Of a DNA stretch of 64,000 nucleotides, positions 996-62,884 are shown piece by piece. The DNA is taken from IMG/VR virus record IMGVR_UViG_3300037400_005125, positions 25,721 to 89,720 of that record; one strand, given 5' to 3'. Positions within the stretch are counted from its first letter, which is position 1. Each line of letters opens with the position of its first letter. The notes beneath the pieces are model-generated. The model saw only the letters and a program-made list of their open reading frames with translations, ran no database searches and was not told the DNA's origin. A program made the position numbers and the translations under genes. The stretch is from a virus (lineage: Duplodnaviria; Caudoviricetes).

Positions 996-1202
996 TTAGC
1001 CCCTCTGTAAGGCATCCAAAACATCTGGATTAACGTCGCCAGGATAATGTACGTCCTCATCACCTGGAGGAATATCACCAGGACGACTTTTTTCAACACT
1101 TAGCCTTGGATAATCATCTTTAACTTCTTTTAATATTCTCTGTACAGACTCTTTCACAATCCTGTGAAGGTCACTCTCTGTTAATCTAATAACATGCTTC
1201 AT
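996..1202 (-). CDS. Small protein with ESDLH leader motif
   Basis: MKHVIRLTESDLHRIVKESVQRILKE. Confidence 0.75.
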   Translation of the reverse strand: MKHVIRLTESDLHRIVKESVQRILKEVKDDYPRLSVEKSRPGDIPPGDEDVHYPGDVNPDVLDALQRG

Positions 1203-5200: not shown

Positions 5201-5820
5201 TTGTATTGTGAGATATCCATATTTCCAATACCGCCATCAAGTTTATACCCCTGGCATTCATCACCGTTTGAATTGATTGGAATGTATGGTTCAATCATCA
5301 ATGCGTCAAGATTATACCCTAATTTTGAGCAATCACTAGTACCACCAGATGCACTAGCTTCACCAACATAGAATTTTAAAGTATCGTACTTTGAAGACTC
5401 ACAAGTACATGCGGTGGTAGCGCCAGTCTCAAAAGACTTATAGCTGCCACGTGAACGAAGTAGAGCAACAGCCTGTCCATTTGCTGTAACAAGCCAAGCA
5501 GGACCTGCATTATAACCACTCAAACCAAGAACACGAACAACCTTAAGTTGCTCTGACTCGCTCAAGTAAGACTTAGCGATATAAGGCAACTCGTATTTAG
5601 GGTACTGGCTTCCCTTGTATTTCTCCGTACTTGTTCCACCGAATATATCCTGGAACTCACGCCAATTGGCGATATCCATTACCTGGAAAGCAGGACCTTT
5701 CTGGGTCTCACCAACAAGACCAAGTGTTGTAATACCAAGGCTACGAACTGCGTAGTTAAGGTCTATTTCCCTTGAATAGATACCAGGTGAAACATGTATT
5801 CCTCTTGCATTATCTGCCAT
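2287..5820 (-). CDS. Contractile tail sheath protein, unusually long (1177 aa)
   Basis: N-terminal SPGIYSREIDL..GLVGETQKGP; C-terminal YPWFAPAG..RG, RINPI, WGQKNL, LNRIAVRRLL, FEPND, IYFKP..ALEYIVIDF. Confidence 0.93.
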   Translation of the reverse strand: MADNARGIHVSPGIYSREIDLNYAVRSLGITTLGLVGETQKGPAFQVMDIANWREFQDIFGGTSTEKYKGSQYPKYELPYIAKSYLSESEQLKVVRVLGLSGYNAGPAWLVTANGQAVALLRSRGSYKSFETGATTACTCESSKYDTLKFYVGEASASGGTSDCSKLGYNLDALMIEPYIPINSNGDECQGYKLDGGIGNMDISQYNHGRFKIVGWKDSHEESELEPVREARDNYKSVLSNTASTEEQIAVAKKAYEDAKAAVAGYFEYAVSLNPSDKEYILNVLGTKPYDGDAYVFVESLYDVALDQGIVDGTLTKIDDELTGYQVYYTADYCHHEPVSAIMTIPQAALKRKHVGMRFLADSATTTDSAFTSVAYDYSTGQPYMLGMINDSGNVVENTAFTKAAISTTMLNSFSGLSKDDKKVANAIPAIFKMAAGQIYTVRQYTTQDGKRHYYYGFYSPGSVNNVCKTYNDADEGKGKQLDPTNMYGNLLTGGHGGMNGGIEREYPNIGVNAKWATLVLNNADGLYYKMRTIKEEDTDVTQNITPVTLDLNDYKSAYRYASTPWIVSNLKGDYEQVEVNRLFRFHTISDGSNSNYEIKVSIENVRPDAGTFDVVVRNVFDSDESPVILERFTHCTMIPGDSGYIAFKIGSFDGVYEAKSKYITVEVNDSTAARTSVPAGFLGYPIPQYSGTPITGDAKTGIKFPTLAYNRYFDPDIKNRKQYFGLSSWVGVDIDNFTFKGNKAYIDNPAFLTSGFHLDSRIDYNKGGGTAYSGLTVDGDKGYNFECVSTDSRTSTLSEPPVIGTEEEMYGSIYEYVNLRKFTVYFYGGFDGWDDYRDERTNTDEYKMSQYRGYVNQGSGEGYAFNKIKNPDLLQLNQNGITSDWYAYLSGIRQFANPEASDINVFATPGIDYVNQKLLVEEAIEMIEEERADSIYVVTTPDKPSGAGDYVDEMYTPEEAVTNLEDTEIDSNYTCTYYPWVKYLDQDNNQYIYLPATKDAVRNFAQTDNTAYPWFAPAGIERGNVDCVRAHFITKIGDEDVLYDGRINPIKTFAQDGPKIWGQKNLQINESQLNRIAVRRLLLRMRKLVAISCIGLIFEPNDPTTKQSFLSTVTPIMDSIRSNRGISDYRIEINDTIESRERRELPVKIYFKPYNALEYIVIDFILTPEGVSFDDI

Positions 5821-5888
5821 AATTCTTAAAATATTTAATTTTTATTAGTTATTTTCGTTATATATAAATATTTAATGGTTTCCAAAGA

Positions 5889-6221
5889 TTACTTCCAAAA
5901 CTTAATTTCTGATACAATATTTACAAATTCTTCGTCCCCATGTATCATATAAACATAGTCTATAAACTTTTTAATATCAGTACAGTCAAACTCAATTTCA
6001 TTCTTCATAATTTCATTATGATATTCCTTAAGTTTTTCTATGTCACCATATTTCTTATGAAATTCATCCTGTAACAAAAACGCATAAGAAGTAATTCTTC
6101 CAACCTCTTTTAGATAGTTATAAAGCTTCAGAGCGTTCCCAAAGTCAAGATTAAATTTAAATCTAGCATCTATTTCAAGAAGTATTCTCTCAAGCGTCAT
6201 TAAATCTTTGAGTTTAATCAT
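5889..6221 (-). CDS. Hypothetical protein
   Basis: 110-aa ORF with TATTTATT motif upstream. Confidence 0.65.
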   Translation of the reverse strand: MIKLKDLMTLERILLEIDARFKFNLDFGNALKLYNYLKEVGRITSYAFLLQDEFHKKYGDIEKLKEYHNEIMKNEIEFDCTDIKKFIDYVYMIHGDEEFVNIVSEIKFWK

Positions 6222-6429
6222 AACAATTTGTTTTTATTATTAATAAATATCGCCAAATTTTTGAAAAGACATAAAAAAAAAAGGGAACGATATACTTGTT
6301 GACACAAAATAACGTTCTTACATAAGTATACAATAAATGAGGAATTATTTCAATACAGTTCATCATTTTTTTATTTAACATCAATATTTATTTAAAGAAA
6401 TAACTTAATAAATAACAAACAAAACATAT

Positions 6430-7803
6430 ATGAAATACTTAAAAAAATTCAGTACTCACTCTGAGTATGAGACATACATTAACGGTAGTGGAGCAATTCT
6501 ACCAAATGTATCAATCTGTACAACTGAAGGTGATGTGCATTATAATCCAACCGTTGCTGTAACAGGTGTATCACTTAATAAAAGTGAGTTAAGCCTTAAT
6601 AAAGGTGATTCTGAAATCTTGATAGCCACTGTATTACCAAGTAATGCAAGTAATAAATCAGTAACTTGGTCATCAAGTGATGATAGTGTATTCACTGTTA
6701 GTAATAATGGTCTTGTAACTGCTGTAGGCGATAGTGGAAATGCTAATGTAATAGCAACAACAGTTGATGGCGGATTCACAGCACAATGTGTTGCAAACAT
6801 CACACATGACTATTCACAAGACTACTTCACAATGGTGGTAACAAGTGGTGGTGATATTAAATTCAGTGGCTCAACAACAGCAAATACGCTGTCTTATTCA
6901 AAGGATAACGGTGCTAATTGGTCATCTGTAACAATTGCAGATACAATATCTGTTGTTGAAGGTGATAAGGTTCTATGGAAAGGAACGCCAACACCACAAC
7001 CATCTAAAGGTATTGGTAAGTTCATTGGTGGTACTGATGTTAGATATTCAGTAGAAGGTAATGCAATGTCATTACTGTTTGGTGATGACTTTAAAGACCA
7101 AATAAGTCTTAGTGGTAAGAATTATGCATTATATGGTTTATTCAGGGGCAACACCAATGTAACAAGTGCTGAAAACTTATCATTACTTGCAACAACGTCG
7201 ACAACTTCCTGTTATAGCTATATGTTCAGAAGTTGTACAAGTCTAACGACAGCACCTGAGTTACCTGCAACAATGTTAGCAAATGAGTGTTATAACGGTA
7301 TGTTCTATGATTGTACAAATCTAACGACAGCACCTTCTGTGTTACCTGCTACAACGTTGGCAAATAACTGTTATACCCAAATGTTTTGTGGTTGTACAAG
7401 TCTAAGGACAGCCCCTGAGTTACCAGCAACAACATTGGCAAATAACTGTTATAGCTTTATGTTCAATGGTTGTACAAGTCTAACGACAGCACCTGAGTTG
7501 CCTGCAACAATGTTAGCAAATGAGTGTTATCAAAATATGTTCCAAGATTGTACAAGTCTAACGACAGCACCTGAGTTACCCGCAACAACGTTGGTAATTA
7601 GCTGTTATAGCTTTATGTTCAGTGGTTGTACAAGTCTAAGTTCAATTAAGTGTCTTGCAACAAGCATTAGTGCACGTAACTGTACATATGATTGGGTAAA
7701 TGGTGTTGCAGCAAGTGGTACATTTACTAAGGCAGCAAGTATGAGAAGTTGGACAAAAGGTATTAGTGGTATTCCAACCAATTGGACTGTGAAAAATGCA
7801 TAG
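6430..7803 (+). CDS. Adhesin-like protein: conserved N-terminal module, Ig-like (Big_2-type) domain, about six 26-aa LRR-like repeats
   Basis: MKYLKKFSTHSEYETYING..LPNVS..VHYNP N-terminus; VTGVSLNKSELSL..VTWSSSD..VTAVG Ig motif; LTTAPELPATxLAxxCYxxMFxxCTS repeats. Confidence 0.8.
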   Translation: MKYLKKFSTHSEYETYINGSGAILPNVSICTTEGDVHYNPTVAVTGVSLNKSELSLNKGDSEILIATVLPSNASNKSVTWSSSDDSVFTVSNNGLVTAVGDSGNANVIATTVDGGFTAQCVANITHDYSQDYFTMVVTSGGDIKFSGSTTANTLSYSKDNGANWSSVTIADTISVVEGDKVLWKGTPTPQPSKGIGKFIGGTDVRYSVEGNAMSLLFGDDFKDQISLSGKNYALYGLFRGNTNVTSAENLSLLATTSTTSCYSYMFRSCTSLTTAPELPATMLANECYNGMFYDCTNLTTAPSVLPATTLANNCYTQMFCGCTSLRTAPELPATTLANNCYSFMFNGCTSLTTAPELPATMLANECYQNMFQDCTSLTTAPELPATTLVISCYSFMFSGCTSLSSIKCLATSISARNCTYDWVNGVAASGTFTKAASMRSWTKGISGIPTNWTVKNA

Positions 7804-7816
7804 TAAAATATTATAT

Positions 7817-7850
7817 AAGAGGGATAGTTCAAGTGGACTATCCTTTTATT
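7817..7850 (+). terminator. Intrinsic terminator of the cassette 1 cargo gene
   Basis: GGATAGTTC-aagt-GGACTATCC stem followed by TTTTATT. Confidence 0.65.
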
Positions 7851-8029
7851 ATGCCACTTTGTTATGTGCATACCAATGATAGTATACATCACGCTTGAAC
7901 ATCATATATTCAATATCCACAACAGTAGATAGTGACAATGCATCATAAGTTGCTGAAAGTTTTGTCCTTTCAGCAACTTTGTATATTTATTCAAAAGGAA
8001 CGACTTGTGTCAACAAGTATATCGTTCCC

Positions 8030-8059
8030 AAAAAAAAAGAGCAACCATTACAGTTGCTC
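8030..8059 (-). terminator. Intrinsic terminator of gene 8048-9445; its U-tract is the cassette 1 insertion site
   Basis: Minus strand GAGCAAC-tgtaatg-GTTGCTC-T9, directly followed by the GGGAAC TIR. Confidence 0.8.
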
Positions 8060-9445
8060 CTCATCTTCATTAGGGTTAATCAATATATGTTCTTCCTCTA
8101 TTTGTTCATCAAGCGACGATTCTGGTATATTTTCAAGGTCTATAACTGTTTCTGGGTCATAACCTATTAGAACCACACCAGACTCCGAATGAAGGTCATC
8201 CCTTGTTATTTTAACGGTTATTTCATCGTCTTTCAAAAATTTTATTTCATTATCAAGACTCATTACCTCCCCATTAACTATAAGGCTAAAATCGTGAACA
8301 TTATCAGTCTCTACTGAATCAAGAACCATATCCTTGTCAATTGTAAATGAAAGCTCAAGTGTACAATCATCAAATCTCATAAATACTTTCATTACTTTAT
8401 ACTTATATCTGTTCTCTGGGGGAACACAGCAATCATCGTTTGATTCCACTAGTTCAGCAATTTCTGGTGGAGGTGGTACTTTTTCACCAATTACTGGTAC
8501 TTCACATAACTCTGTTTTGTCTACCATAGTACTAAGGTAATGCCCCTTATGCTTTTCTGGTTCAAACATTACATCTTCTTTTGAAACCCACCAGTCTGGT
8601 TTACCTGGGTGCATACCACCTTCAGGGGCTGTTATAAACTGAACCCTTTCGTCTGGTCTCCTATTCTTTCCTCTCCTATTTATTATACCAGTTGCATCAG
8701 AATCGTGAGAAGACATAATTAGTCTTGAAGGTATTCTCTCAACCTTGTAATCTTCTCTCCTTATTATATATCCCTTCAGCTTAATCTTAAATGTCTGAGA
8801 GTAATACTTACGGTCATCAATGGTATATTCTGACTGGTCTGATATATCCTCAAGAGTCAATGGCATAGGGTGGTCATTAGGCGAAACATACACATTAATT
8901 GCGCTGAATTCATAGTGCATAAGTTCATTCATTTCATTAAGCAACTCCATCTTATTAGTGATAATAGACACAGAATACATGAAATTAACTGAGAATGGTT
9001 GTTTCATTGTGTACTTATCATATGCCTCTGTTCCATTCTCTTGTAGTACAGGAACATAAAACATTGCAAAATCCTTATGACCTGGTATGTTGAAATAACT
9101 AGACTGGTTTTCTCCCTTCTGTGGATTATTCTCACGAGTAATGGTCTTGAAATTCATTATCATGTTACCATAATCATCAGTCTGACTCCAGGTTTGTGTA
9201 TATTCGCTAAGTCTTTGCGTTGAATACAGCTTATATGTTGGAAGTCTAACACCGTCATACTCAAGGTTGAATTTCTTGTCAACCCAATTGTACATTTCCT
9301 GGTCTATGTCAGAGTACTCAATAGGTTTTGGAAATGGCGTTCCATTCTCCAATATGAGCTTTGACATGTTCCTCCTTCTTTCAACACCATATGCGTGGTG
9401 TCTTAGTCTGAGTTTATCCCTATATGGTTTTGGCTGTATTAACAT
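8048..9445 (-). CDS. Probable tail terminator / sheath-completion protein (T4 gp15-like) with C-terminal extension
   Basis: DIDQEM..W, P.SVNFMYSVSIIT.KM..LN and Y.QTFKIKLKGY pattern; near the sheath gene; family assignment from memory of the motif. Confidence 0.5.
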   Translation of the reverse strand: MLIQPKPYRDKLRLRHHAYGVERRRNMSKLILENGTPFPKPIEYSDIDQEMYNWVDKKFNLEYDGVRLPTYKLYSTQRLSEYTQTWSQTDDYGNMIMNFKTITRENNPQKGENQSSYFNIPGHKDFAMFYVPVLQENGTEAYDKYTMKQPFSVNFMYSVSIITNKMELLNEMNELMHYEFSAINVYVSPNDHPMPLTLEDISDQSEYTIDDRKYYSQTFKIKLKGYIIRREDYKVERIPSRLIMSSHDSDATGIINRRGKNRRPDERVQFITAPEGGMHPGKPDWWVSKEDVMFEPEKHKGHYLSTMVDKTELCEVPVIGEKVPPPPEIAELVESNDDCCVPPENRYKYKVMKVFMRFDDCTLELSFTIDKDMVLDSVETDNVHDFSLIVNGEVMSLDNEIKFLKDDEITVKITRDDLHSESGVVLIGYDPETVIDLENIPESSLDEQIEEEHILINPNEDEEQL

Positions 9446-9504: not shown

Positions 9505-9732
9505 ATGAGGCAGATTATAAGACTTACAGAAAGTGACCTTCACAAGATTGTCAAGGAATCGGTAAACAAAATACTTAAAGAAGCAAATTGGTCAAATGCA
9601 TACGACGATGATTTCATGGGCCCTAACGCAAGACTAGAAGATTTATATCCAGACGAATATCCAGAAGAGGATGAAGAAGACCCATTAACAATTGCGCATA
9701 ACTGGAAAGAAGACCATCGTGGAGAAATATAA
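9505..9732 (+). CDS. Small acidic protein with ESDLH leader motif
   Basis: MRQIIRLTESDLHKIVKESVNKILKE; TATTTATA upstream. Confidence 0.75.
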   Translation: MRQIIRLTESDLHKIVKESVNKILKEANWSNAYDDDFMGPNARLEDLYPDEYPEEDEEDPLTIAHNWKEDHRGEI

Positions 9733-26155: not shown

Positions 26156-27411
26156 ATGAGACACTGTAAGAACTATTGGAAAAATAAAAACAATGTATTT
26201 GAGGAGTCAAAAAAATATACTTCAAGGTCATCGTTTAACAAGCATTCAAGAAAGGCATATGATGAGGCAAGAAAAAATAATTGGCTTGATGAAATGACAT
26301 GGCTTATCAGTAAAAATGTGTTTGTTGATAAAGTAGATAATATTTACAGATATTATTTCAAAAATGAAAATGCTATATACATTGGTAGGACAATCTATCC
26401 AGAATTAAGGGATTATCAACATAGGACTACAGTTAACGATACTGTTTATAAATTTGCTAGTAAGAATTCCACTACCATACCACAGATGGAAGTCATAGAA
26501 ACAAACATAACAGTTCCGCAAGGTTCAAGAAAAGAAATATTTTGGGAACAGTATTATAGAGACAATGGGTATATAGTGTTAAACAAAAAAAAATGTGGTG
26601 GGGTAGGTTCTATATCAACTGGAAAATGGAGTAAATCAAAGTGCATAGAAGAATCAAAAAAATATAAAACTAGAAGTGAGTTCTCAACTGGAAATAGTAA
26701 TGCATACCAAAAATCAATAAAAGAAGGTTGGATAAATGAAATGATTTGGTTAAATAATAATAGAAAATATCCTAAAGGATTTTGGACAATAAAAGAAAAC
26801 GTGTTGGAAGAAGCAAAAAAATATAACTCAAAAAAAGAATTTGAAAAGAAAAACATTAGTGCATTTTTAGCTGCATATAGATATGGATTTATTAAAGATA
26901 TGAATTGGCTTGTAAAGCAAAAACAACACAAGAAAAATCATTGGAACGAAACTGAACTTAAATCAGAGTCAAAAAAATATTCAACTAGAACTGAATTTTC
27001 TATCAAAAACAGGGCAGCATACAATGCCGCTAAAAAACTTAGCATACTTGATGAATTATTTCCAAAACAAGAAAAAAAAAAGTTGTTGAGAGACACCCAA
27101 AAGGCTACTGGAAAAACAGGGAAAACATGATGAATGAAGCTATGAAATATTCAACCAAAGAAGAATTCCAAAAAGGAAATCTTTCTGCTTTTCTTGCAGC
27201 TCATAAATACGGCTACATAGATGAAATGTATTGGCTTGTTAAACAGAAACAACATAAAAAAGGATATTGGACTTACAAGCACATTGAAGAGGAGGCGCTA
27301 AAGTACAATACCAAGACTGAATTCTTCAAAGGAAACCAGACAGCATACCGTGCTGCATTGAAAATGGGAGTAATTGATGACTTCTTCGTTATGAATGACT
27401 ATGTGCAATAA
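26156..27411 (+). pseudogene. GIY-YIG endonuclease with tandem repeats, split by a frameshift at an A10 run (ORFs 26156-27130 and 27127-27411)
   Basis: NIYRYY..IYIGRT..R..QH..E..LN GIY-YIG motif; EAKKY..R.EF.K.N..AY..A...GW repeats continue across the shift (..ELFPKQEKK/VVERHPKGYWKNRENMMNEAMKY). Confidence 0.7.
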
Positions 27412-27466: not shown

Positions 27467-27492
27467 TTAGAGTCAACAGGTATATAGTTCCC
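27467..27492 (-). repeat. Orphan, diverged copy of the cassette terminal inverted repeat
   Basis: Minus strand GGGAACTATATACCTGTTGACTCTAA, 22/26 identical to the cassette 2 TIR at 49916; abuts the stop codon of gene 27493-28008. Confidence 0.7.
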
Positions 27493-28008
27493 TTAAAAAT
27501 TATATTTTCGTCTAAGTTCCATATATACTGCATCTGCAATTTTCATTCTCAGAGGTATTGACATAATCTGTTTGAATATCTGGGGGCATCTTGAAATAAA
27601 TTCTTCTTTCCTCCATTTTAACTGCTGATTTTGCGTCCCTCCTGGGAACATCAAAAGTCGAGGATGAAAGCAAGAAAGAGCTTCTTCCGATAATTTTTCA
27701 TCATTCATTACTGTATCAACAACGTTCTTGATGATTTCGTCGTTCCTGCCTTCCGATAATATCTTGTTTACAGATTCTTTCACAATTCTGTGAAGGTCAC
27801 TCTCTGTTAGCCTAATGATGGTTTGTTCCTCAACTTTTTCTGGAAGTCCCTTATGTTTTGTCTCGGCAAAATCCTTTACATCATCCATCGACATTCCTTT
27901 TGCAGCTTTCTTTATCTTGCTGCTTGCATTCTTCATTTCGCCCTTCTTGTATGCATCTACCATACCAAAGAACCTCTGTTGTTCTTTACTTTTACTTTTA
28001 CTTGGCAT
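27493..28008 (-). CDS. DUF3008-like N-terminus plus internal ESDLH motif
   Basis: SKSKEQQRFFGMV..KKG..MS..DVKDFAETKHKGLPEKV then IIRLTESDLHRIVKESVNKILSE. Confidence 0.65.
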   Translation of the reverse strand: MPSKSKSKEQQRFFGMVDAYKKGEMKNASSKIKKAAKGMSMDDVKDFAETKHKGLPEKVEEQTIIRLTESDLHRIVKESVNKILSEGRNDEIIKNVVDTVMNDEKLSEEALSCFHPRLLMFPGGTQNQQLKWRKEEFISRCPQIFKQIMSIPLRMKIADAVYMELRRKYNF

Positions 28009-28032: not shown

Positions 28033-28641
28033 TTATTTCAATTTAACTCTTGATAAAAAATCTTTTAAACAAGCATCCTCATCATAGTTTATATCTCTAA
28101 CTATTGAATATAAATCATCACAGTCCAAATTCTGTGTCTTCAAGAATTCAACGTCTTCATCATCACCATTTCCAAATGCCCTCTTTAGTTTCCTATTAAA
28201 TGCATTTCCATATGTAGGTATATACCCTCTGAAACGTTTTCCATCCCAATATATAAAAAACAATATAGGACACTCCCAATCACCGCCAGCATAGCATTTC
28301 AGATATGTTATACCTTTCCGTGTTTCAACTTTACCGATTGCACCAAGATTTTCGCAATCATAGTCTATCTTAGATATATCGTCCAGCAATGTTGACAATT
28401 CTTTTGGCTTTTCCTTATTGTAATTGTTACAAAAGGTATATACAAAACTATCTAGAGAAAAACGCCTTTCATTGTTCTTTTCATAAATAGATTTCATTTT
28501 CTCCTCAAATTCTTTTGGTGAAATCTTTGCTGCTGTTCTACCAGTTTTAGGAAGTTCAACATCTAAGTTAACAATATATCTTTTTTTCCCTCCTTCTATA
28601 ATTAATCTCAACTGAGATTCATTTAACATTATTTTTTTCAT
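28033..28641 (-). CDS. Hypothetical protein with leader-like MKKIMLNESQLRLIIE
   Basis: ORF track; start moved to ATG 28641. Confidence 0.65.
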   Translation of the reverse strand: MKKIMLNESQLRLIIEGGKKRYIVNLDVELPKTGRTAAKISPKEFEEKMKSIYEKNNERRFSLDSFVYTFCNNYNKEKPKELSTLLDDISKIDYDCENLGAIGKVETRKGITYLKCYAGGDWECPILFFIYWDGKRFRGYIPTYGNAFNRKLKRAFGNGDDEDVEFLKTQNLDCDDLYSIVRDINYDEDACLKDFLSRVKLK

Positions 28642-30592
28642 ACCTATAATTATTCTCAATTATCAGTTGTTCCATAAAACAGTTATATATCTTGAATGAC
28701 TTGATATACCCTATGAAACTACCAGCAAAGTTCTTCTCAATAGGATAGACCCTGGTAGGATTCAACATATAGTTCTGTTGTATTGTCTCCGCAAGACCTT
28801 GTGTTCCACCACCAAGTGATATATTGTATGGGACACCTTCTTGCTTCTCATAAAGCTCATGTAATGCCTTCATATTAAGTTCTGGAAGGTCTTTTGTAAT
28901 ATAAACAAGCTTACCGTTAACATAGAACATGATTTTCATCTTACCCATAAAGAACTGAAGTCTTGCCATTACTGTAACCCACTCACAATCAGGTATTACA
29001 TTTTCGAATGAATAGCCTTCTTCAATACTTGACTTATCCCTTCCTTCTTTACTACAATCCATCGTAAGAAATCTATATCCAATTTCACCATTATCAGTAA
29101 TCCTGAATGCAAGAGCATTATTGTATATATCATTATAAGGGTTATAGTTGTTAGCAGACTGGTCTCTAAGCTCATCAATAGTGTTTACAGTATATCCTGT
29201 CTTTGTCCTATTCATAAGGATAAATAAGTTTCCTGTAAACTGACTTCTCCTACCATAATACATTATCTGAGTACCTTCAACCCAATCCTTGATTGTATGA
29301 CCTTTCTTAGTCCTGTCAAATATCATGAATTTATTATCAGTATAGAAGTAATACTGATTTGCCTCGAACAGATTAAACCCATTGTCAGTATAATATTCAA
29401 AATCAGATATATCAAGTTCTGCCTCTATATAATCAGTAGCCTCATCAACAGACAATAACTCACTTGTATCTACTATATAATCATCACCGAATTCAGTTCC
29501 CATCTTCAGTGGATTTGGGTCAAATGTATCTTTATCCTTCTTTACCTTTTTATATGATATAGGGCATCCGCATCCTTTAAAGAACGGCATTAACGTATAA
29601 TCTGGGTCTCCTATTTCATTACAACACCAAGTAAGAACTGTATGTGATGCACTTTCGTCTATTATTTTTGGTTTTTTCTCTGAAGGTATCTCAAGGTAAT
29701 CATACATATCATTCCAATCACAGTAATCATCAGCATACAAATCATCATTGTAGTAACTGTAATTCGTATAATCACCAAGTTCAAATGGGTCATACCCATC
29801 GAAGTCTATTACTGGAGTGCCGAAGTTGCCTATTATATGGTCTTTCTTATCAATTTCTCCGTCTTCGACAAAATCATCAACACCAAGTTCATAGCAAGCC
29901 TCAAGACCATCTACATCATCTTTGTCATAAGCATAAATCCACTTATTCTCAGACCTAGTTCCAATGTAAAAGAAAATACCCTTATTCTCTGGGTACTTAT
30001 CATTAAGCGTTTTATCTGACTCAGGCTCAAGGTCACATTTCTTCAGGCTAAACTCGAAATATATATTATCACCACTTTCGAAATTTGATGGTAATACCTG
30101 ATACTTATCACATTCAGTCTTGAAAAAACCCTGGAAAAAGCCACCATTAAATTTAGTTTGGCATTCCTCAATAGTTAAAGGATATTCATATTGTAATGTA
30201 CTCCCACTTACAGCGTGAAGTTTAAGCCTAGTATCACCTTCTGGTATTTCATATTTGTTACTCTGAAATATCTTCACAAAATCTTTATTAGATATTCTAT
30301 CCTTCCTAAATGAGAATAAACCATTATCAACACCAGTGTATGTTATGTTATGAAGTGTATACCCACTTGCAAGTGCTTTATCCCAACTATATGCGTTTTT
30401 ACTATAAACCCACTCTGAGCCATCAGTGCATTCTTTATCACACATATCTATATAAGAGATAAGACAATCATCGTATAACCCATTCAGTTTTGTTAAACCG
30501 AAAGAGTCTTTATTAACGAAGAAATCCCAATATTCATCCCTGTTAATTCTCAGTTTTAGGTTATGATAGTTATTTACCTTTAAATTTGCCAT
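28619..30592 (-). CDS. Putative virion protein with C-terminal LamG/concanavalin-like segment
   Basis: EWVTVMARL..KIMFYVNGKLV..ISLGGG..FIGYIKSFKIYN; late-type motif upstream. Confidence 0.5.
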   Translation of the reverse strand: MANLKVNNYHNLKLRINRDEYWDFFVNKDSFGLTKLNGLYDDCLISYIDMCDKECTDGSEWVYSKNAYSWDKALASGYTLHNITYTGVDNGLFSFRKDRISNKDFVKIFQSNKYEIPEGDTRLKLHAVSGSTLQYEYPLTIEECQTKFNGGFFQGFFKTECDKYQVLPSNFESGDNIYFEFSLKKCDLEPESDKTLNDKYPENKGIFFYIGTRSENKWIYAYDKDDVDGLEACYELGVDDFVEDGEIDKKDHIIGNFGTPVIDFDGYDPFELGDYTNYSYYNDDLYADDYCDWNDMYDYLEIPSEKKPKIIDESASHTVLTWCCNEIGDPDYTLMPFFKGCGCPISYKKVKKDKDTFDPNPLKMGTEFGDDYIVDTSELLSVDEATDYIEAELDISDFEYYTDNGFNLFEANQYYFYTDNKFMIFDRTKKGHTIKDWVEGTQIMYYGRRSQFTGNLFILMNRTKTGYTVNTIDELRDQSANNYNPYNDIYNNALAFRITDNGEIGYRFLTMDCSKEGRDKSSIEEGYSFENVIPDCEWVTVMARLQFFMGKMKIMFYVNGKLVYITKDLPELNMKALHELYEKQEGVPYNISLGGGTQGLAETIQQNYMLNPTRVYPIEKNFAGSFIGYIKSFKIYNCFMEQLIIENNYRYEKNNVK

Positions 30593-47870: not shown

Positions 47871-48061
47871 TGAAAAAGAAAGTTGATTTTTCAAAGTTAT
47901 CTAATGCTGAGATAAACTTGAAGATAATGGGTTATGAAAACGAATACAACGTTAAAAAAGATAAAATAATATCTTTAGTTGGTGATTTACAAGAATTAGA
48001 TGACTTGTTTATAAAAGCTAATGAAGAACTTAAAAAAAGGGGTGTTTTGAGCAATGGGTAA
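47870..48061 (+). CDS. Small hypothetical protein
   Basis: Translationally coupled on both sides. Confidence 0.6.
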   Translation: MKKKVDFSKLSNAEINLKIMGYENEYNVKKDKIISLVGDLQELDDLFIKANEELKKRGVLSNG

Positions 48062-48980
48062 GGTTTTAATGAAAATAGGAAAGGTAATAGAGGTTGAAGA
48101 CAAATTTTCAAAAGACTATGCCAATGGACTTAGAGTACGTGCAAAACTTGATATAGACAAACAGAAACAGAAGATAAATGAGCTTATTCCTTGGGCTTTT
48201 CCATTGCTTCCTAAGTCATTGCAGGTAGTTCCTAAGGTTGGAGAAGCTGTATTAATTATTGCCGACGAAACTGGTGAATTTTCTTCAGCACAGAGGTATT
48301 ACATAGGACCGCTTATATCGCAGCCACAATATAATACGTTCTGTTCTTCAGAGGATGCCACAACCCTTTTACAAAATTCTGAGAGAAATCCCATGCCAGC
48401 TATTGAATGGAATAGCAATACTAATGGTTCATTCCCTGATTCTAGTGACATTGCCGTTGTTGGTAGAGGTTCTGAGGATGTCATACTCAAATATGATGAC
48501 AAATCAAAGACAAGTGAAGTAGATATAAGAGCTGGTATAAGAGGTGATGCTGGTTCTGGGTTAGTAGAAAACGGTATTGTAGGTAATGTTATATTCAATG
48601 GTACTGACCCAGCATATATACAATTGAAATATAAAAAGGGTATAGCAACTGGTGAAAAGAATATGGCTAACAGTCTTATTAATATAGTGGCTAATAGAAT
48701 TAATATAATGAGTAATAGAGATTCTGAAGTTAGTCATGACTTAATGGATAGAGATACATTAGTTAAGGAAGAGGAAATGGATAATATAATGGATAGGCTT
48801 CATCAAGTTCCTAAAGGAGACAAACTAGTAGAACTACTTGAACTTATGAAGGGAGCTATTCTTCATCATGTACACCCTTGGGCTGGTATGGAACAATGTG
48901 GAGATAAGCCAGGATTCATTAATCAACTTAAGGATTATGATATGCAAAAGATTCTGTCTGAGTATGTTAGAATATCATAA
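48054..48980 (+). CDS. Baseplate hub/spike protein, gp5/VgrG-like OB-fold
   Basis: IGKVIEVED..RVRA..PWAFPLLP..VPKVGEAV.I..RYYIGP; C-terminal HHVHP metal-binding motif. Confidence 0.7.
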   Translation: MGKVLMKIGKVIEVEDKFSKDYANGLRVRAKLDIDKQKQKINELIPWAFPLLPKSLQVVPKVGEAVLIIADETGEFSSAQRYYIGPLISQPQYNTFCSSEDATTLLQNSERNPMPAIEWNSNTNGSFPDSSDIAVVGRGSEDVILKYDDKSKTSEVDIRAGIRGDAGSGLVENGIVGNVIFNGTDPAYIQLKYKKGIATGEKNMANSLINIVANRINIMSNRDSEVSHDLMDRDTLVKEEEMDNIMDRLHQVPKGDKLVELLELMKGAILHHVHPWAGMEQCGDKPGFINQLKDYDMQKILSEYVRIS

Positions 48981-48984
48981 AGAG

Positions 48985-49014
48985 AATGCGGTCACTGTTG
49001 ACTGCATTTTTTTT
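48985..49014 (+). terminator. Intrinsic terminator of the gp5-like gene; its U-tract is the cassette 2 insertion site
   Basis: ATGCGGTCA-ctgt-TGACTGCAT stem with T8 (49007-49014), directly followed by the GGGAA TIR. Confidence 0.8.
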
Positions 49015-49042
49015 GGGAATGATATACTTGTTGGCACTAAAA

Positions 49043-49070
49043 ATGGGTGAGCCTTAATTGGTTCACCCAT
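49043..49070 (-). terminator. Terminator of the cassette 2 cargo gene
   Basis: Minus strand ATGGGTGAACC-aattaa-GGCTCACCCAT followed by T-tract running into the TIR. Confidence 0.75.
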
Positions 49071-49082
49071 ATATTTTGTTTT

Positions 49083-49802
49083 TTAATAGCCTTTATAATT
49101 ATCGTATACATAATCGCAAAAAGATGCCCAAGCCCTTTTAAAACCACCTTCATCAGCGTTTGCAGTACTGCCATCGTAGAATAAATTTAACTCCTTATAT
49201 ATTTTATTAGCATAAATTTGGAAAAACATCCAACCAGGCATTTTACCGTTGTCATAACAATAAATAATATATTCTCCCAAATTTTTACAACCGCATTTAT
49301 ATAATCTTTCTTTTGTATATGAATCTCCTTTATACCTTAATACAATTTTTGCATGTGATTTAAGCCAGTTTAATGCATAGTCATAAATCTCGTCTTTACT
49401 CATAACATTCTCTTTAGCATCTTTATCAGCAAGTGATTGATAAATTTCTGATTCTGATTTTCTTTTTGTTTTCCCTTTTCTTGCTAATTCTGAATTTCTT
49501 AATTTTTCATCCATTTCAGCATAAGAACCTTTGTCAAATGCCGATGAACCATCAATACTTTTAGTGTTATTATCATATGCATATTTTTGAATTGGTTTGG
49601 CTGCATTATATGCTTTGCTATATCTTTCTTCATCTTTATCATCAGCAGCAGCAAGTTCATTATTGTATTTTCTACGCCAAAGTTTTCCAAGCATATATTG
49701 TCCCCTTCTTGTATCACCAATTTCATTGATTATTGTACTTATTGACTCTTTTATAATATTGTGTAAATCACTTTCAGTGAGTCTAATTTGTTTCTTATTC
49801 AT
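49083..49802 (-). CDS. Cassette 2 cargo: hypothetical protein with ESDLH leader
   Basis: MNKKQIRLTESDLHNIIKESISTIINE; TATTTATA upstream, inside the TIR. Confidence 0.75.
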   Translation of the reverse strand: MNKKQIRLTESDLHNIIKESISTIINEIGDTRRGQYMLGKLWRRKYNNELAAADDKDEERYSKAYNAAKPIQKYAYDNNTKSIDGSSAFDKGSYAEMDEKLRNSELARKGKTKRKSESEIYQSLADKDAKENVMSKDEIYDYALNWLKSHAKIVLRYKGDSYTKERLYKCGCKNLGEYIIYCYDNGKMPGWMFFQIYANKIYKELNLFYDGSTANADEGGFKRAWASFCDYVYDNYKGY

Positions 49803-50029
49803 ATTTTGAATACGTATTTATTCTATTATTTTCTATATAAATACCAGAAGATATAGAAAAACGCATCATTTTCTAACTACATTTTATAATTTAGTGCCAA
49901 CAAGTATATCGTTCCCTTTTTTTTTGTAATTTTGTTAATAGAAAATTTGCTTTTTTAACTTTTTTTATATATCTTTGCATTACAAAACGAGAGAACAAAA
50001 GAGATTGTTTAACTTAATTAATTTTATTA

Positions 50030-56706: not shown

Positions 56707-57777
56707 TTACTGTTCTACCTTTGTCCAGTTATACTTTCCTAAGTAATAATTACCTGTTCCCATCCAAGTATCATATCCACTACTACCTATTGGCACTGTT
56801 AATGTACCACCTGTTTCGACATTTTGGAACGTATTACTCTGTATTGTAGGTGCTGTTGTTGCATTAGATACTATACTTGTAAGTTCGCTACAATCTCTGA
56901 AAGCACCAATACCAATACTTGTAACGCCACTACCTATGGTACAACTTGTCATACCACTACACAATTGGAAAGCATAATTATCAATACTTGTAACACTATC
57001 TGGTATTGTTACACTTGTAAGGCTCTCACAATAATAGAAAGCATATTCACCAATACTTGTAACACCACTACCTATAGTGCAACTTATAAAACCACAACCA
57101 TAGAAAGTATAGCCACCAATACTTGTAACACCACTTGGTATGTCTATACTTGTAAGGCTATTACAATTATAGAAAGCACCATAATCAATACTTGTAACAC
57201 TATCAGGTATAGTTACACTTGTAAGACCACTACAATTTTGGAAAGCAGCGCCACCAATACTTGTAACACTATCTGGTATATCTATACTTGTAAGACTACT
57301 ACAATCCATGAAAGCGGTATCACCAATACTTGTAACACCACTACCTATTGTACAACTTGTAAGACCTTTACAATAATAGAAAGCATGACTACCAATACTT
57401 GTAACACCATCTTTTAAGTCTAGTGTAACGGTGTGTTCATTTGTATCTCCAAAATCATATGTACTTACAACTGATTGCTGTTCAACACCATCAATTTTCA
57501 TTGATTCAATTGATTCAATGAACTCGTCAGAAAATAATTGTGTTGAATTTCCCTCTCCAGAACCATTACCTGAGCCACTACCTGAACCTCCACCTGTTGG
57601 AACATATACACAAGTTAATGTTGCTGTCTGTGGTGTTGGTGGTACGGGTGTACTTGGATTATAACGTACTGTATTATTCTCCACTGTAAGTGATACATTA
57701 GGTAGTATTACCCCACTACCATTAATGTAGGTTTCGTACTCAGCATTAGTGCTGAATTTCTTTAAATACTTTGCCAT
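56707..57777 (-). CDS. BspA/LRR_5 adhesin paralog A (8 LRRs, C-cap type GNYYLG.YNWTKVEQ)
   Basis: MAKYLKKFSTNAEYETYING N-module; 23-aa VTSIGxxAFxxCxxLTSxxIPD repeats. Confidence 0.85.
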   Translation of the reverse strand: MAKYLKKFSTNAEYETYINGSGVILPNVSLTVENNTVRYNPSTPVPPTPQTATLTCVYVPTGGGSGSGSGNGSGEGNSTQLFSDEFIESIESMKIDGVEQQSVVSTYDFGDTNEHTVTLDLKDGVTSIGSHAFYYCKGLTSCTIGSGVTSIGDTAFMDCSSLTSIDIPDSVTSIGGAAFQNCSGLTSVTIPDSVTSIDYGAFYNCNSLTSIDIPSGVTSIGGYTFYGCGFISCTIGSGVTSIGEYAFYYCESLTSVTIPDSVTSIDNYAFQLCSGMTSCTIGSGVTSIGIGAFRDCSELTSIVSNATTAPTIQSNTFQNVETGGTLTVPIGSSGYDTWMGTGNYYLGKYNWTKVEQ

Positions 57778-61270: not shown

Positions 61271-62884
61271 TTATGAACAACTTCCTGGTATTGCTTGTAT
61301 TCTACTTGCATAAGTGCTCCAATAACTTGCCTCCTTATATGTATCTACACTGTTACATGGAACATAGATTGGACAATTATTGGTGTAGTCAAATACCCCT
61401 GAACCTAATGTTGGAGGCACTATTGCATTACATATTATGCTTGTAAGACCAGTACAATATTGGAAAACAGCAGTACCGATACTTGTAACACCACTACCTA
61501 TTGTAACACTTGTAAGACTAGTACATCTAATGAAAGCACCACTACCAATACTTGTAACACTATCTGGTATATCTATACTTGTAAGATTATAACAATTAGT
61601 GAAAGCACTAGCACCAATACTTGTTACACCACTACCTATAGTACAACTTGTAAGACCACTACATTGATAGAAAACATAATTACCAATGCTTGTAACACCA
61701 GTACCTATTGTAACGTTTGTAAGTCTAATACAATAAGCGAAAGCATGTTCACCAATACTTGTAACACTATCAGGTATTGTTACACTTGTAAGGCTACTAC
61801 AATAATAGAAAGCATATTCGCCAATACTTGTTACACTATCAGGTATATCTATACTTGTAAGGCCAGTACAACTTTGGAAAGCATAATTTCCGATACTCGT
61901 AACACTATCAGGGATGGTTACACTTGTAAGGCCACTACAACAATAGAAAGCACTACTGCCAATACTTGTAACGCCACTACCTATGGTACAACTTGTCATA
62001 CCACTACACAATTGGAAAGCACTACTACCAATACTTGTAACACTATCAGGTATATCTATACTTGTAAGGCTTCTACAACCACTGAAAGCAATATCACCAA
62101 TACTTGTAACACTATTAGGGATTGTTATACTTGTAAGACCACTACAATCTCTGAAAGCACCATTACCAATGCTTGTAACACTATCTGGGATTGTTATGCT
62201 TGTAAGTCCACTACAATTAGTGAAAGCACTATATCCAATAATTGTTACTCCATCAGGTATAATTACACTTGTAATACTGCTACAACTTTTGAAAGTGCTA
62301 GTATAAATACTTGTTGGGTCTTTTAATGTGTACTTAACTGTATGTTCGCCAGTTGTATTGAATCTATATGTTTTTGGTACACTTTGTTGTCTAACACCAT
62401 CTATCTCAATCTTACTGATATTAGTAGTTGCACTTAAAATTTTTGTTAATTTACTTGTATCCGTCACATTGAACTTAGCAATAAGTCTAGTGTCCTTTGG
62501 TTCTTGCGTCAATGAGTAGGTAATCTCAATGTCATGGTAATAAATGCTACCACTTATTGTTCTGCTATCAGCAGTACTTGGATTTGCACCACATTCAACA
62601 GTTACAGAATCTTCACCTTCTGTTACTGTCTCAGTGCAAGCTGTGTCCGTATCAATCTTTCTGTATCTTATTATAATATCAAATGAAGATGAAGCACCTT
62701 CAATTGTTGAAGGATAAGATGAATCAATAACCTCCCAATTAGTCATTTCCTCGCAGCCAAATGGGTTATAATGAACTTCATCTGGAGTGTCAATACAATA
62801 TGACACATTAGGAAGAATCAACCCACTTTCTACATAACTCTCATATTCAGAATGAGTGTTGAATAATTTAATGTATTTACTCAT
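61271..62884 (-). CDS. BspA/LRR_5 adhesin paralog C (13 LRRs, C-cap type CPIYVP..SRIQAIP)
   Basis: MSKYIKLFNTHSEYESY..LPNVS..VHYNP N-module; 23-aa repeats. Confidence 0.85.
   Translation of the reverse strand: MSKYIKLFNTHSEYESYVESGLILPNVSYCIDTPDEVHYNPFGCEEMTNWEVIDSSYPSTIEGASSSFDIIIRYRKIDTDTACTETVTEGEDSVTVECGANPSTADSRTISGSIYYHDIEITYSLTQEPKDTRLIAKFNVTDTSKLTKILSATTNISKIEIDGVRQQSVPKTYRFNTTGEHTVKYTLKDPTSIYTSTFKSCSSITSVIIPDGVTIIGYSAFTNCSGLTSITIPDSVTSIGNGAFRDCSGLTSITIPNSVTSIGDIAFSGCRSLTSIDIPDSVTSIGSSAFQLCSGMTSCTIGSGVTSIGSSAFYCCSGLTSVTIPDSVTSIGNYAFQSCTGLTSIDIPDSVTSIGEYAFYYCSSLTSVTIPDSVTSIGEHAFAYCIRLTNVTIGTGVTSIGNYVFYQCSGLTSCTIGSGVTSIGASAFTNCYNLTSIDIPDSVTSIGSGAFIRCTSLTSVTIGSGVTSIGTAVFQYCTGLTSIICNAIVPPTLGSGVFDYTNNCPIYVPCNSVDTYKEASYWSTYASRIQAIPGSCS

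Follow-up and report, generated by a model that had tools for sequence, protein, structure and literature searches.

How does a segment with a single gene come to stand between two core genes of a giant rumen phage, enclosed by an inverted repeat and by a run of T on either side? The question is raised by a 902-bp segment (49015-49916) of the window, by which we mean the whole stretch of 64,000 nucleotides analysed here, part of an 89.7-kb virus record estimated at ~24% of a ~370-kb genome. The preliminary description had given this segment, cassette 2 in what follows, a 27-bp inverted repeat with one mismatch and T8/T9 flanks, a promoter-like motif, a 239-aa ORF with an ESDLH leader and a terminator of its own, and we found each of these features where it had been placed (Table 1). 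The two arms are complementary at 26 of 27 positions (96%), with a T/C pair at position 6 as the sole mismatch, and 848 nt lie between them. The 239-aa cargo, which is without a transposase domain, is the only substantial ORF in this interval. Megablast, run with the locus as query, found no match among GenBank phages.

Table 1 Features of cassette 2, of cassette 1 and of the solo end (window coordinates)
Feature	Coordinates	Strand	Remarks
Upstream-gene terminator hairpin	48985-49006	+	Terminator of gene 48054-48980; -10.1 kcal/mol, right before T8; its T-tract is the putative insertion target; kept in L037
Left target-duplication copy, T8	49007-49014		Single T7 at the corresponding site of L037
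TIR, terminator side	49015-49041	+	First 19 nt differ by 1 mismatch from termini of transposase-bearing elements
Cargo-gene terminator hairpin	49043-49070	-	11-pair stem; T-run overlaps inner TIR end; jointly conserved 3' module
Cargo gene, 239 aa	49083-49802	-	Begins MNKKQIRLTESDLH; all-helical model; function unknown
ESDLH leader codons	49722-49802	-	Residues 1-27, ending IINE; similarity between cassettes ceases after the xE codon
TATTTATA promoter-like motif	49835-49842	-	41 nt upstream of the cargo ATG
Inward-facing hairpin and T-run, decayed copy	49850-49885	-	Stem substitutions relative to sister cassettes
TIR, promoter side	49890-49916	-	19-nt core identical to the autonomous element of L051
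Right target-duplication copy, T9 (8 plus 1)	49917-49925		Direct repeat of the left T8
Cassette 1, 1747 bp, A8 duplication	6283-8029	+	Arms 6283-6307 and 8005-8029, perfect over 25 nt
Cassette 1 cargo, Big_2 plus LRR_5	6430-7803		Within cassette 1
IS1595 transposase remnant, last 33 codons	7852-7950	-	Cassette 1, between cargo stop codon and right TIR
Solo TIR-like end	27474-27492	-	2-3 mismatches; no partner

The outer 19 nt of the arms recur within the window: with ≤3 mismatches allowed, five copies of this terminus are present against 0.07 expected, a number reached in 0/100 shuffles. Four of the copies are the ends of cassette 2 and of a second element, cassette 1, while the fifth is solo. 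This solo end adjoins the terminator of a GIY-YIG-like gene (26156-27411, +), which appears to be split near 27130, and reaches as far as the stop codon of a gene that combines DUF3008 with an ESDLH leader (27493-28008); no partner for it was found upstream.

We then searched for exact copies of the terminus in IMG/VR, in prokaryote genomes (one per species) and in JGI metagenome contigs. When the ends were paired by script, 43 non-redundant elements with lengths of 165 to 3191 bp emerged, all bounded by the same 19-nt terminus, on viral, metagenome and MAG contigs, with up to five termini per phage genome. The 8-mers flanking an element are identical at all eight positions in 29 of the 43 and at seven in a further three, compared with 3 identical 8-mers among 1798 mismatched combinations of left and right flanks. 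These duplicated 8-mers vary from site to site (for example TTTATTTT, ATAAAATA, TAAATAAT and AACATTTA) and are 95% A/T. The proposal that the two ends of an element belong together, put forward because the inner positions of the arms agree within a cassette (GACACAA in cassette 1, GGCACTAAA in cassette 2), holds for the window and for the family, where the 29 elements with perfect duplications show 77% identity at positions 20-26 of the ends within an element and 52% between elements.

Many TIRs are nevertheless solo, lacking a partner end, and for 11 such TIRs, the one at 27474-27492 included, no partner was found within 9 kb. Together with the 11 of 43 TIR pairs that lack a target duplication, the solo ends indicate that recombination between copies and decay also shape these loci. 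Some end pairs combine dissimilar inner sequences with a missing target duplication (L062 504-809, L104 826-1039 and L081/L179), and these are probably chimeras that arose by recombination between two elements. The family also has coding-free members of 165-400 bp (L016, L140, L175 and L059). Three of them are 165-bp MITEs, each at a site of its own and each flanked by a perfect 8-bp duplication (L016 4535-4699, L140 1594-1758 and L175 284-448).

The nature of the machinery follows from what the same ends enclose elsewhere. The preliminary description had spoken of “one mobilising machinery” for the cassettes, and such a machinery was indeed found inside elements with the same termini, in the form of an IS1595-family DDE transposase of 282-340 aa encoded by 21 of the 43 elements (phmmer). 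The protein has an ISXO2-like DDE domain (PF12762, E 6.6e-44) and a Zn_ribbon_IS1595 domain (PF12760, E 7e-9), and matches NCBIfam NF033547, “IS1595 family transposase”, at E 2.2e-59. In three of the transposase-bearing elements (L051, L070 and L064) a passenger gene adjoins the transposase; the L051 element measures 2465 bp, is flanked by the duplication TTTATTTT and resides in a complete viral genome of 412.5 kb. Elements that have these ends and encode the transposase thus occur in related phages of about 410 kb as well as in Prevotella-type chromosomes. Searching IMG/VR with the transposase returned 19 loci, most of them bounded by variants of the same terminus and by 8-bp duplications. 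Relatives are abundant in metagenomes (2121 protein clusters at E <= 1e-30), and they occur in 6 of 50,697 GenBank phage records, none above 40% identity.

TIRs of 25 bp and direct repeats of 8 bp are the published hallmarks of IS1595-family elements (PMC5704250), a family defined by Siguier, Gagnevin and Chandler in 2009, as cited in that paper. Cassette 2 has TIRs of 27 nt that agree at 26 of 27 positions, where about 25 bp is typical of the family, and an 8-bp direct target duplication, T8 on one side and T8 plus one on the other. Unlike a MITE it carries a passenger gene, the 239-aa ORF. No transposase lies between its ends, and an empty site is known. A tblastn search with the transposase found nothing in cassette 2, and no full gene in the 89.7-kb record that holds the window. 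Since the same ends enclose an IS1595 transposase elsewhere and none in cassette 2, the segment is best described as a mobile insertion cassette, and we are confident that it is a non-autonomous one, derived from a passenger-carrying insertion sequence of the IS1595 family.

How such a cassette loses its transposase can be read from its sister in the window. Between the cargo gene and the right TIR of cassette 1 there remains a stump of 33 codons (TYDALS...HWYAHNKVA) that matches residues 308-340 of the transposase with 64% identity (E 8.1e-8), which is direct evidence that cassettes arise by internal deletion; a second remnant, of 56 aa, is present in L203. The two stumps identify the transposase-less cassettes as deletion derivatives of passenger-carrying IS1595 elements. 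Mobilisation of cassette 2 would then depend on a transposase supplied in trans, which would bind both 27-nt ends and paste the cassette into an A/T-rich 8-mer, duplicating the target; in this case, the target would have been the T-tract of the terminator that follows gene 48054-48980. The source of the enzyme could be an autonomous copy elsewhere in the phage, a co-infecting phage or the host chromosome.

An insertion of this kind predicts relatives in which the site is still empty, and the preliminary description had accordingly called for a precise 902-bp indel ending at the GGG/CCC termini. Through the protein upstream of cassette 2 we found contig L037, which is 95.7% identical to the window up to 49013 and 97.5% identical from 49919 onwards. 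At its junction, the terminator hairpin is followed by T7 and then directly by the right-flank sequence, so that L037 lacks the 902 bp along with one of the T-tracts and keeps a single T-tract, exactly as proposed. Cassette 1 likewise has an empty site, in L221, where the ortholog of gene 8048-9445 is followed by its terminator, T6 and the promoter region that lies to the left of cassette 1 in the window. The unrelated interiors, the different target duplications (A8 and T8) and the separate empty sites of the two cassettes all indicate independent insertions, in agreement with the original suggestion that no duplication of one cassette into the other took place. In a more distant relative (L229), another such cassette, at 5324-6370, directly follows the ortholog of gene 8048-9445; it looks like an independent insertion near the cassette 1 site.

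The flanking T8 and T9 are present as first noted, but what they stand for is better expressed as the duplication of an 8-bp A/T-rich target site. Cassette 1 is flanked by A10 and A9 where cassette 2 is flanked by T8 and T9, and such A flanks at one cassette and T flanks at the other are direct repeats outside the inverted repeat, as expected of a target-site duplication. In the window, the site occupied by each cassette is the T-tract at the intrinsic terminator of an adjoining gene, and the cargo gene of each converges on that gene. Strict targeting of terminators is ruled out as a general rule, given that the duplications are T-tracts of terminator-like hairpins in only 9 of 32 cases across the family. 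What the family prefers in general is an A/T-rich 8-mer; the tails of terminators provide sites of this kind between genes, where an insertion does no harm.

The empty site could also be read with the opposite polarity, with cassette 2 as the ancestral state and L037 as a lineage that lost it through precise deletion between the T-tracts. Homopolymer repeats of 8-9 nt on both flanks could support slippage or recombinational deletion, and the T-tract lengths do vary (T7, T8 and T9). However, comparison at the DNA level showed nothing similar to the interior of the cassette in the more distant relatives L038-L042, and ends that occur together with a varied 8-bp duplicate at 29 different sites are explicable by insertion only. 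Even if the cassette had been lost in L037, its first arrival would still have been by transposition. We therefore consider this order of events improbable.

Two further explanations do without transposition, and both appear to us highly improbable. In the first, cassette 2 is an invertible segment of the inverton or shufflon type, its repeats being recombination sites at which a site-specific recombinase flips the gene and thereby switches its expression. Invertible segments are common in Bacteroidota, and 27-nt inverted repeats that bracket a gene with its own promoter would suit one. Yet target duplications and empty sites are not products of inversion, a DDE transposase lies within the same repeats elsewhere, and the neighbouring genes on both sides are without a Pfam match; moreover, with promoter, gene and terminator all in one unit, flipping cassette 2 would change little. 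In the second, illegitimate or homologous recombination brought in the segment as an ordinary moron, and what looks like a transposon end is a shared palindrome of regulatory or terminator type. This would account for the frequent solo copies of the repeat and for the phage's own promoter-like motif in the cassettes, and a 91%-identical copy of the cargo lies in L237 with one intact end only. It leaves unexplained, however, why 29 different 8-bp sequences are duplicated exactly, why the same ends enclose a transposase and why there are 165-bp coding-free copies with duplications. An integron cassette is ruled out by ends that are TIRs with a target duplication and by the position of the cassette, alone between two phage core genes.

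We aligned seven cassettes with ESDLH-leader cargo, reading inward from the promoter-side end, and all share the same order of TIR, hairpin with T-run, TATTTAT, about 20-30 nt, ATG and leader. The hairpin stem, GCAGTCA...TGACTGC, is present in most ESDLH cassettes and has decayed in cassette 2, TATTTAT is invariant in 7/7, and the similarity among the cassettes stops directly past the terminal x-Glu codon pair of the leader. From conservation and position, TATTTAT is a candidate phage promoter element, and the inward hairpin may likewise act as an insulator. In the window, TATTTAT is found in the sense orientation at -18 to -55 of 20/58 genes as well as inside both cassettes, and the genes that have it are often the first of a transcription unit (1209-1601, 5889-6221, 8048-9445, 28619-30592 and 61271-62884).

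The opposite end of the cassette is constant as well. In L208, which carries an unrelated protein of 104 aa as its payload, the terminator and the adjoining TIR are almost the same as in cassette 2, and a variant of the same 3' module is common to L127 and L144. Because this terminator occurs a single time in the window, it is a property of the cassette and lies outside the general stock of the phage. A payload swap with resident genes through a shared 3' terminator was considered, and it is unsupported in the window, where the cassette terminator was found once only. Cassette 1 represents a second type with the same design: its first 265 nt, which comprise the TIR, the promoter region and the N-terminus MKYLKKF...PNVS...HYNP, and its last 50-130 nt are 78-98% identical among the window, L051 and L006, and the gene bodies differ. 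With 5' and 3' modules conserved around unrelated payloads, the family behaves like a fixed vector with replaceable payloads, in which different phage genes would be placed behind the same leader. Cassette 2 would thus constitute a self-contained expression unit, made up of TIR, decayed insulating hairpin, TATTTAT as a late-type promoter motif, ESDLH leader, payload, terminator and TIR.

The payloads themselves fall largely behind two leaders. Among the 39 elements with an ORF of >=45 aa, the PNVS leader is found in at least 14, where it is followed by LRR_5, Big_2 or Lcl_C-like domains, and the ESDLH leader in at least 8; two carry TnpB. The proposed enrichment of leader-tagged or adhesin cargo hence holds as a description, with an ESDLH- or PNVS-type leader in at least 22 of 39 ORF-bearing elements, which are related to one another, so that these counts do not represent independent events. 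Outside the cassettes, 4 of 56 window ORFs have a leader of either type. Resident genes in the window that share these leaders and have no TIRs lie at 996-1202 (-), 9505-9732 (+), 27493-28008 (-) and 56707-57777 (-), three with the ESDLH and one with the PNVS leader, and the cassette payloads may come from such genes or recombine with them. The two TnpB proteins, of 375 aa, are IS200/IS605-type RNA-guided nucleases that occupy the place of a phage gene within the same ends and perfect 8-bp duplications (L053 5978-7327, in the 363-kb phage G004, and L132 1346-2698), and thus ride in the cassette of another element.

For the 239-aa cargo of cassette 2, no Pfam, PHROG or NCBIfam family was found. 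Its AlphaFold2 model is all-helical (pLDDT 86); a Foldseek search of this model against PDB and BFVD gave nothing at E <= 0.001, the best hit of a wide VIA-align search had a Z of 5.4, which is within noise for helical models, and a feature search of the Atlas returned no usable match. The protein does have about 10 full-length homologues at 38-90% identity, among which the stretch EIGDTRRGQY directly after the leader is invariant; one of them (P0007) starts with MNEIGDT and lacks the leader altogether. Their settings differ: P0005 lies between diverged TIRs, in a cassette flanked by a 7-8-nt duplication (L076), P0004 is part of an ordinary operon without ends, and the copy in L237, 91% identical to that of cassette 2, has other surroundings and retains an intact end on the terminator side only. 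The occurrence of one homologue in a cassette and another in an ordinary operon suggests a resident phage family that was taken up by cassettes. In a further homologue (P0013), the IRLTESDLH leader appears twice, at the N-terminus and again further inside; within proteins, too, it thus behaves like a module that can be moved.

The capsid-targeting leader of phage T4 is short and N-terminal, and ends in an [LI]-x-E site for the prohead protease. The ESDLH leaders end in INE, LKE, LNE or LSE, an [IL]xE sequence pattern that resembles such a site. One could speculate, from this ending and the modular use of the leader, and from the PNVS leader heading Ig/LRR adhesin-like proteins, that the cassettes constitute a transposon-borne plug-in system for virion cargo, in which payloads behind either leader would be directed into or onto the virion. 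We regard this as doubtful; if it were true, IS1595 transposition would pass virion proteins, whether packaged or displayed, around among giant rumen phages and the Prevotella hosts of these phages.

Mobile insertion cassettes (MICs) are exemplified by MIC231 of IS231 in Bacillus cereus. The qnrD and qnrS2 cassettes are MICs as well (PMC3913671, PMC2600179), and cassette 2 has in common with all of these the inverted repeats of an insertion sequence, the lack of a transposase, few passenger genes, a target duplication and presumed mobilisation in trans. It differs from them in its parent, an element of the IS1595 family, in its residence in a giant phage genome, in its passenger, which is phage-type and leader-tagged where theirs is a resistance or metabolic gene, and in having variable payloads framed by a fixed promoter-leader module on the 5' side and a fixed terminator module on the 3' side. 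Closest to the presumed parents are the passenger-carrying IS1595 elements known as transporter IS, MTnSag1 and tISCpe8 (PMC5704250), which, like L051, L070 and L064, combine a DDE transposase that has an N-terminal zinc ribbon, TIRs of about 25 bp and 8-bp repeats with an adjoining passenger. Their passengers provide lincomycin resistance and mobilisation functions in Firmicutes (PMC5704250), whereas the passengers described here, from rumen Bacteroidota and the phages of these bacteria, are adhesin-like LRR/Ig genes or genes with the ESDLH leader, and cassette 2 no longer has a transposase.

The MITEs reported from phages and hosts are also non-autonomous TIR elements shared by viral and host genomes, but that survey (PMC11602168) is silent on passengers or cargo, whereas the elements here carry expressed-looking genes. 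With phage morons, cassette 2 shares an extra gene with its own promoter and terminator, placed between core genes and missing in a close relative; morons have no defined ends or insertion mechanism, whereas cassette 2 has transposon ends and a target duplication. The resemblance to integron gene cassettes lies in single-gene units of variable content within a conserved frame, but here there is no attC or integrase, movement is by DDE transposition and each cassette has its own promoter. Passenger-carrying IS1595 elements, transposase-less cassettes (PMC5704250, PMC3913671) and phage-host MITEs (PMC11602168) are therefore known already, and what sets the present elements apart is the residence in giant phages, the phage-type, leader-tagged cargo, and the variability of the payloads between promoter-leader and terminator modules that stay fixed.

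The family also extends to bacterial chromosomes. Three autonomous copies lie between housekeeping genes: the copy on the contig of a Prevotella sp. MAG has a C4-dicarboxylate transporter and a phosphoglucomutase as neighbours, and the copies on metagenome contigs neighbour an amidohydrolase, an AraC-type regulator, a 2-hydroxyacid dehydrogenase and an anthranilate synthase. At these chromosomal copies the flanks have a GC content of 47-51%, against 38-39% in the element. The presence of one element family both in such chromosomes and in giant phages points to Prevotella-type Bacteroidota as the likely hosts of these phages.

Phage genomes are reported to hold few insertion sequences, and MITEs were detected in only 0.01% of viral sequences (PMC11602168). 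Against this background, a single IS1595 lineage has established itself both in giant rumen phages and in the bacteria that are their likely hosts, and its termini, shared between the two, offer a host-linking marker for uncultured giant phages. The pair formed by the filled site in the window and the empty site in L037 is a natural experiment on the effect of the cargo. The gene-carrying derivatives provide a concrete and testable route by which single expressed genes may pass between phages, and between host and phage, the cargo classes seen being two, adhesin-like proteins and leader-tagged proteins.
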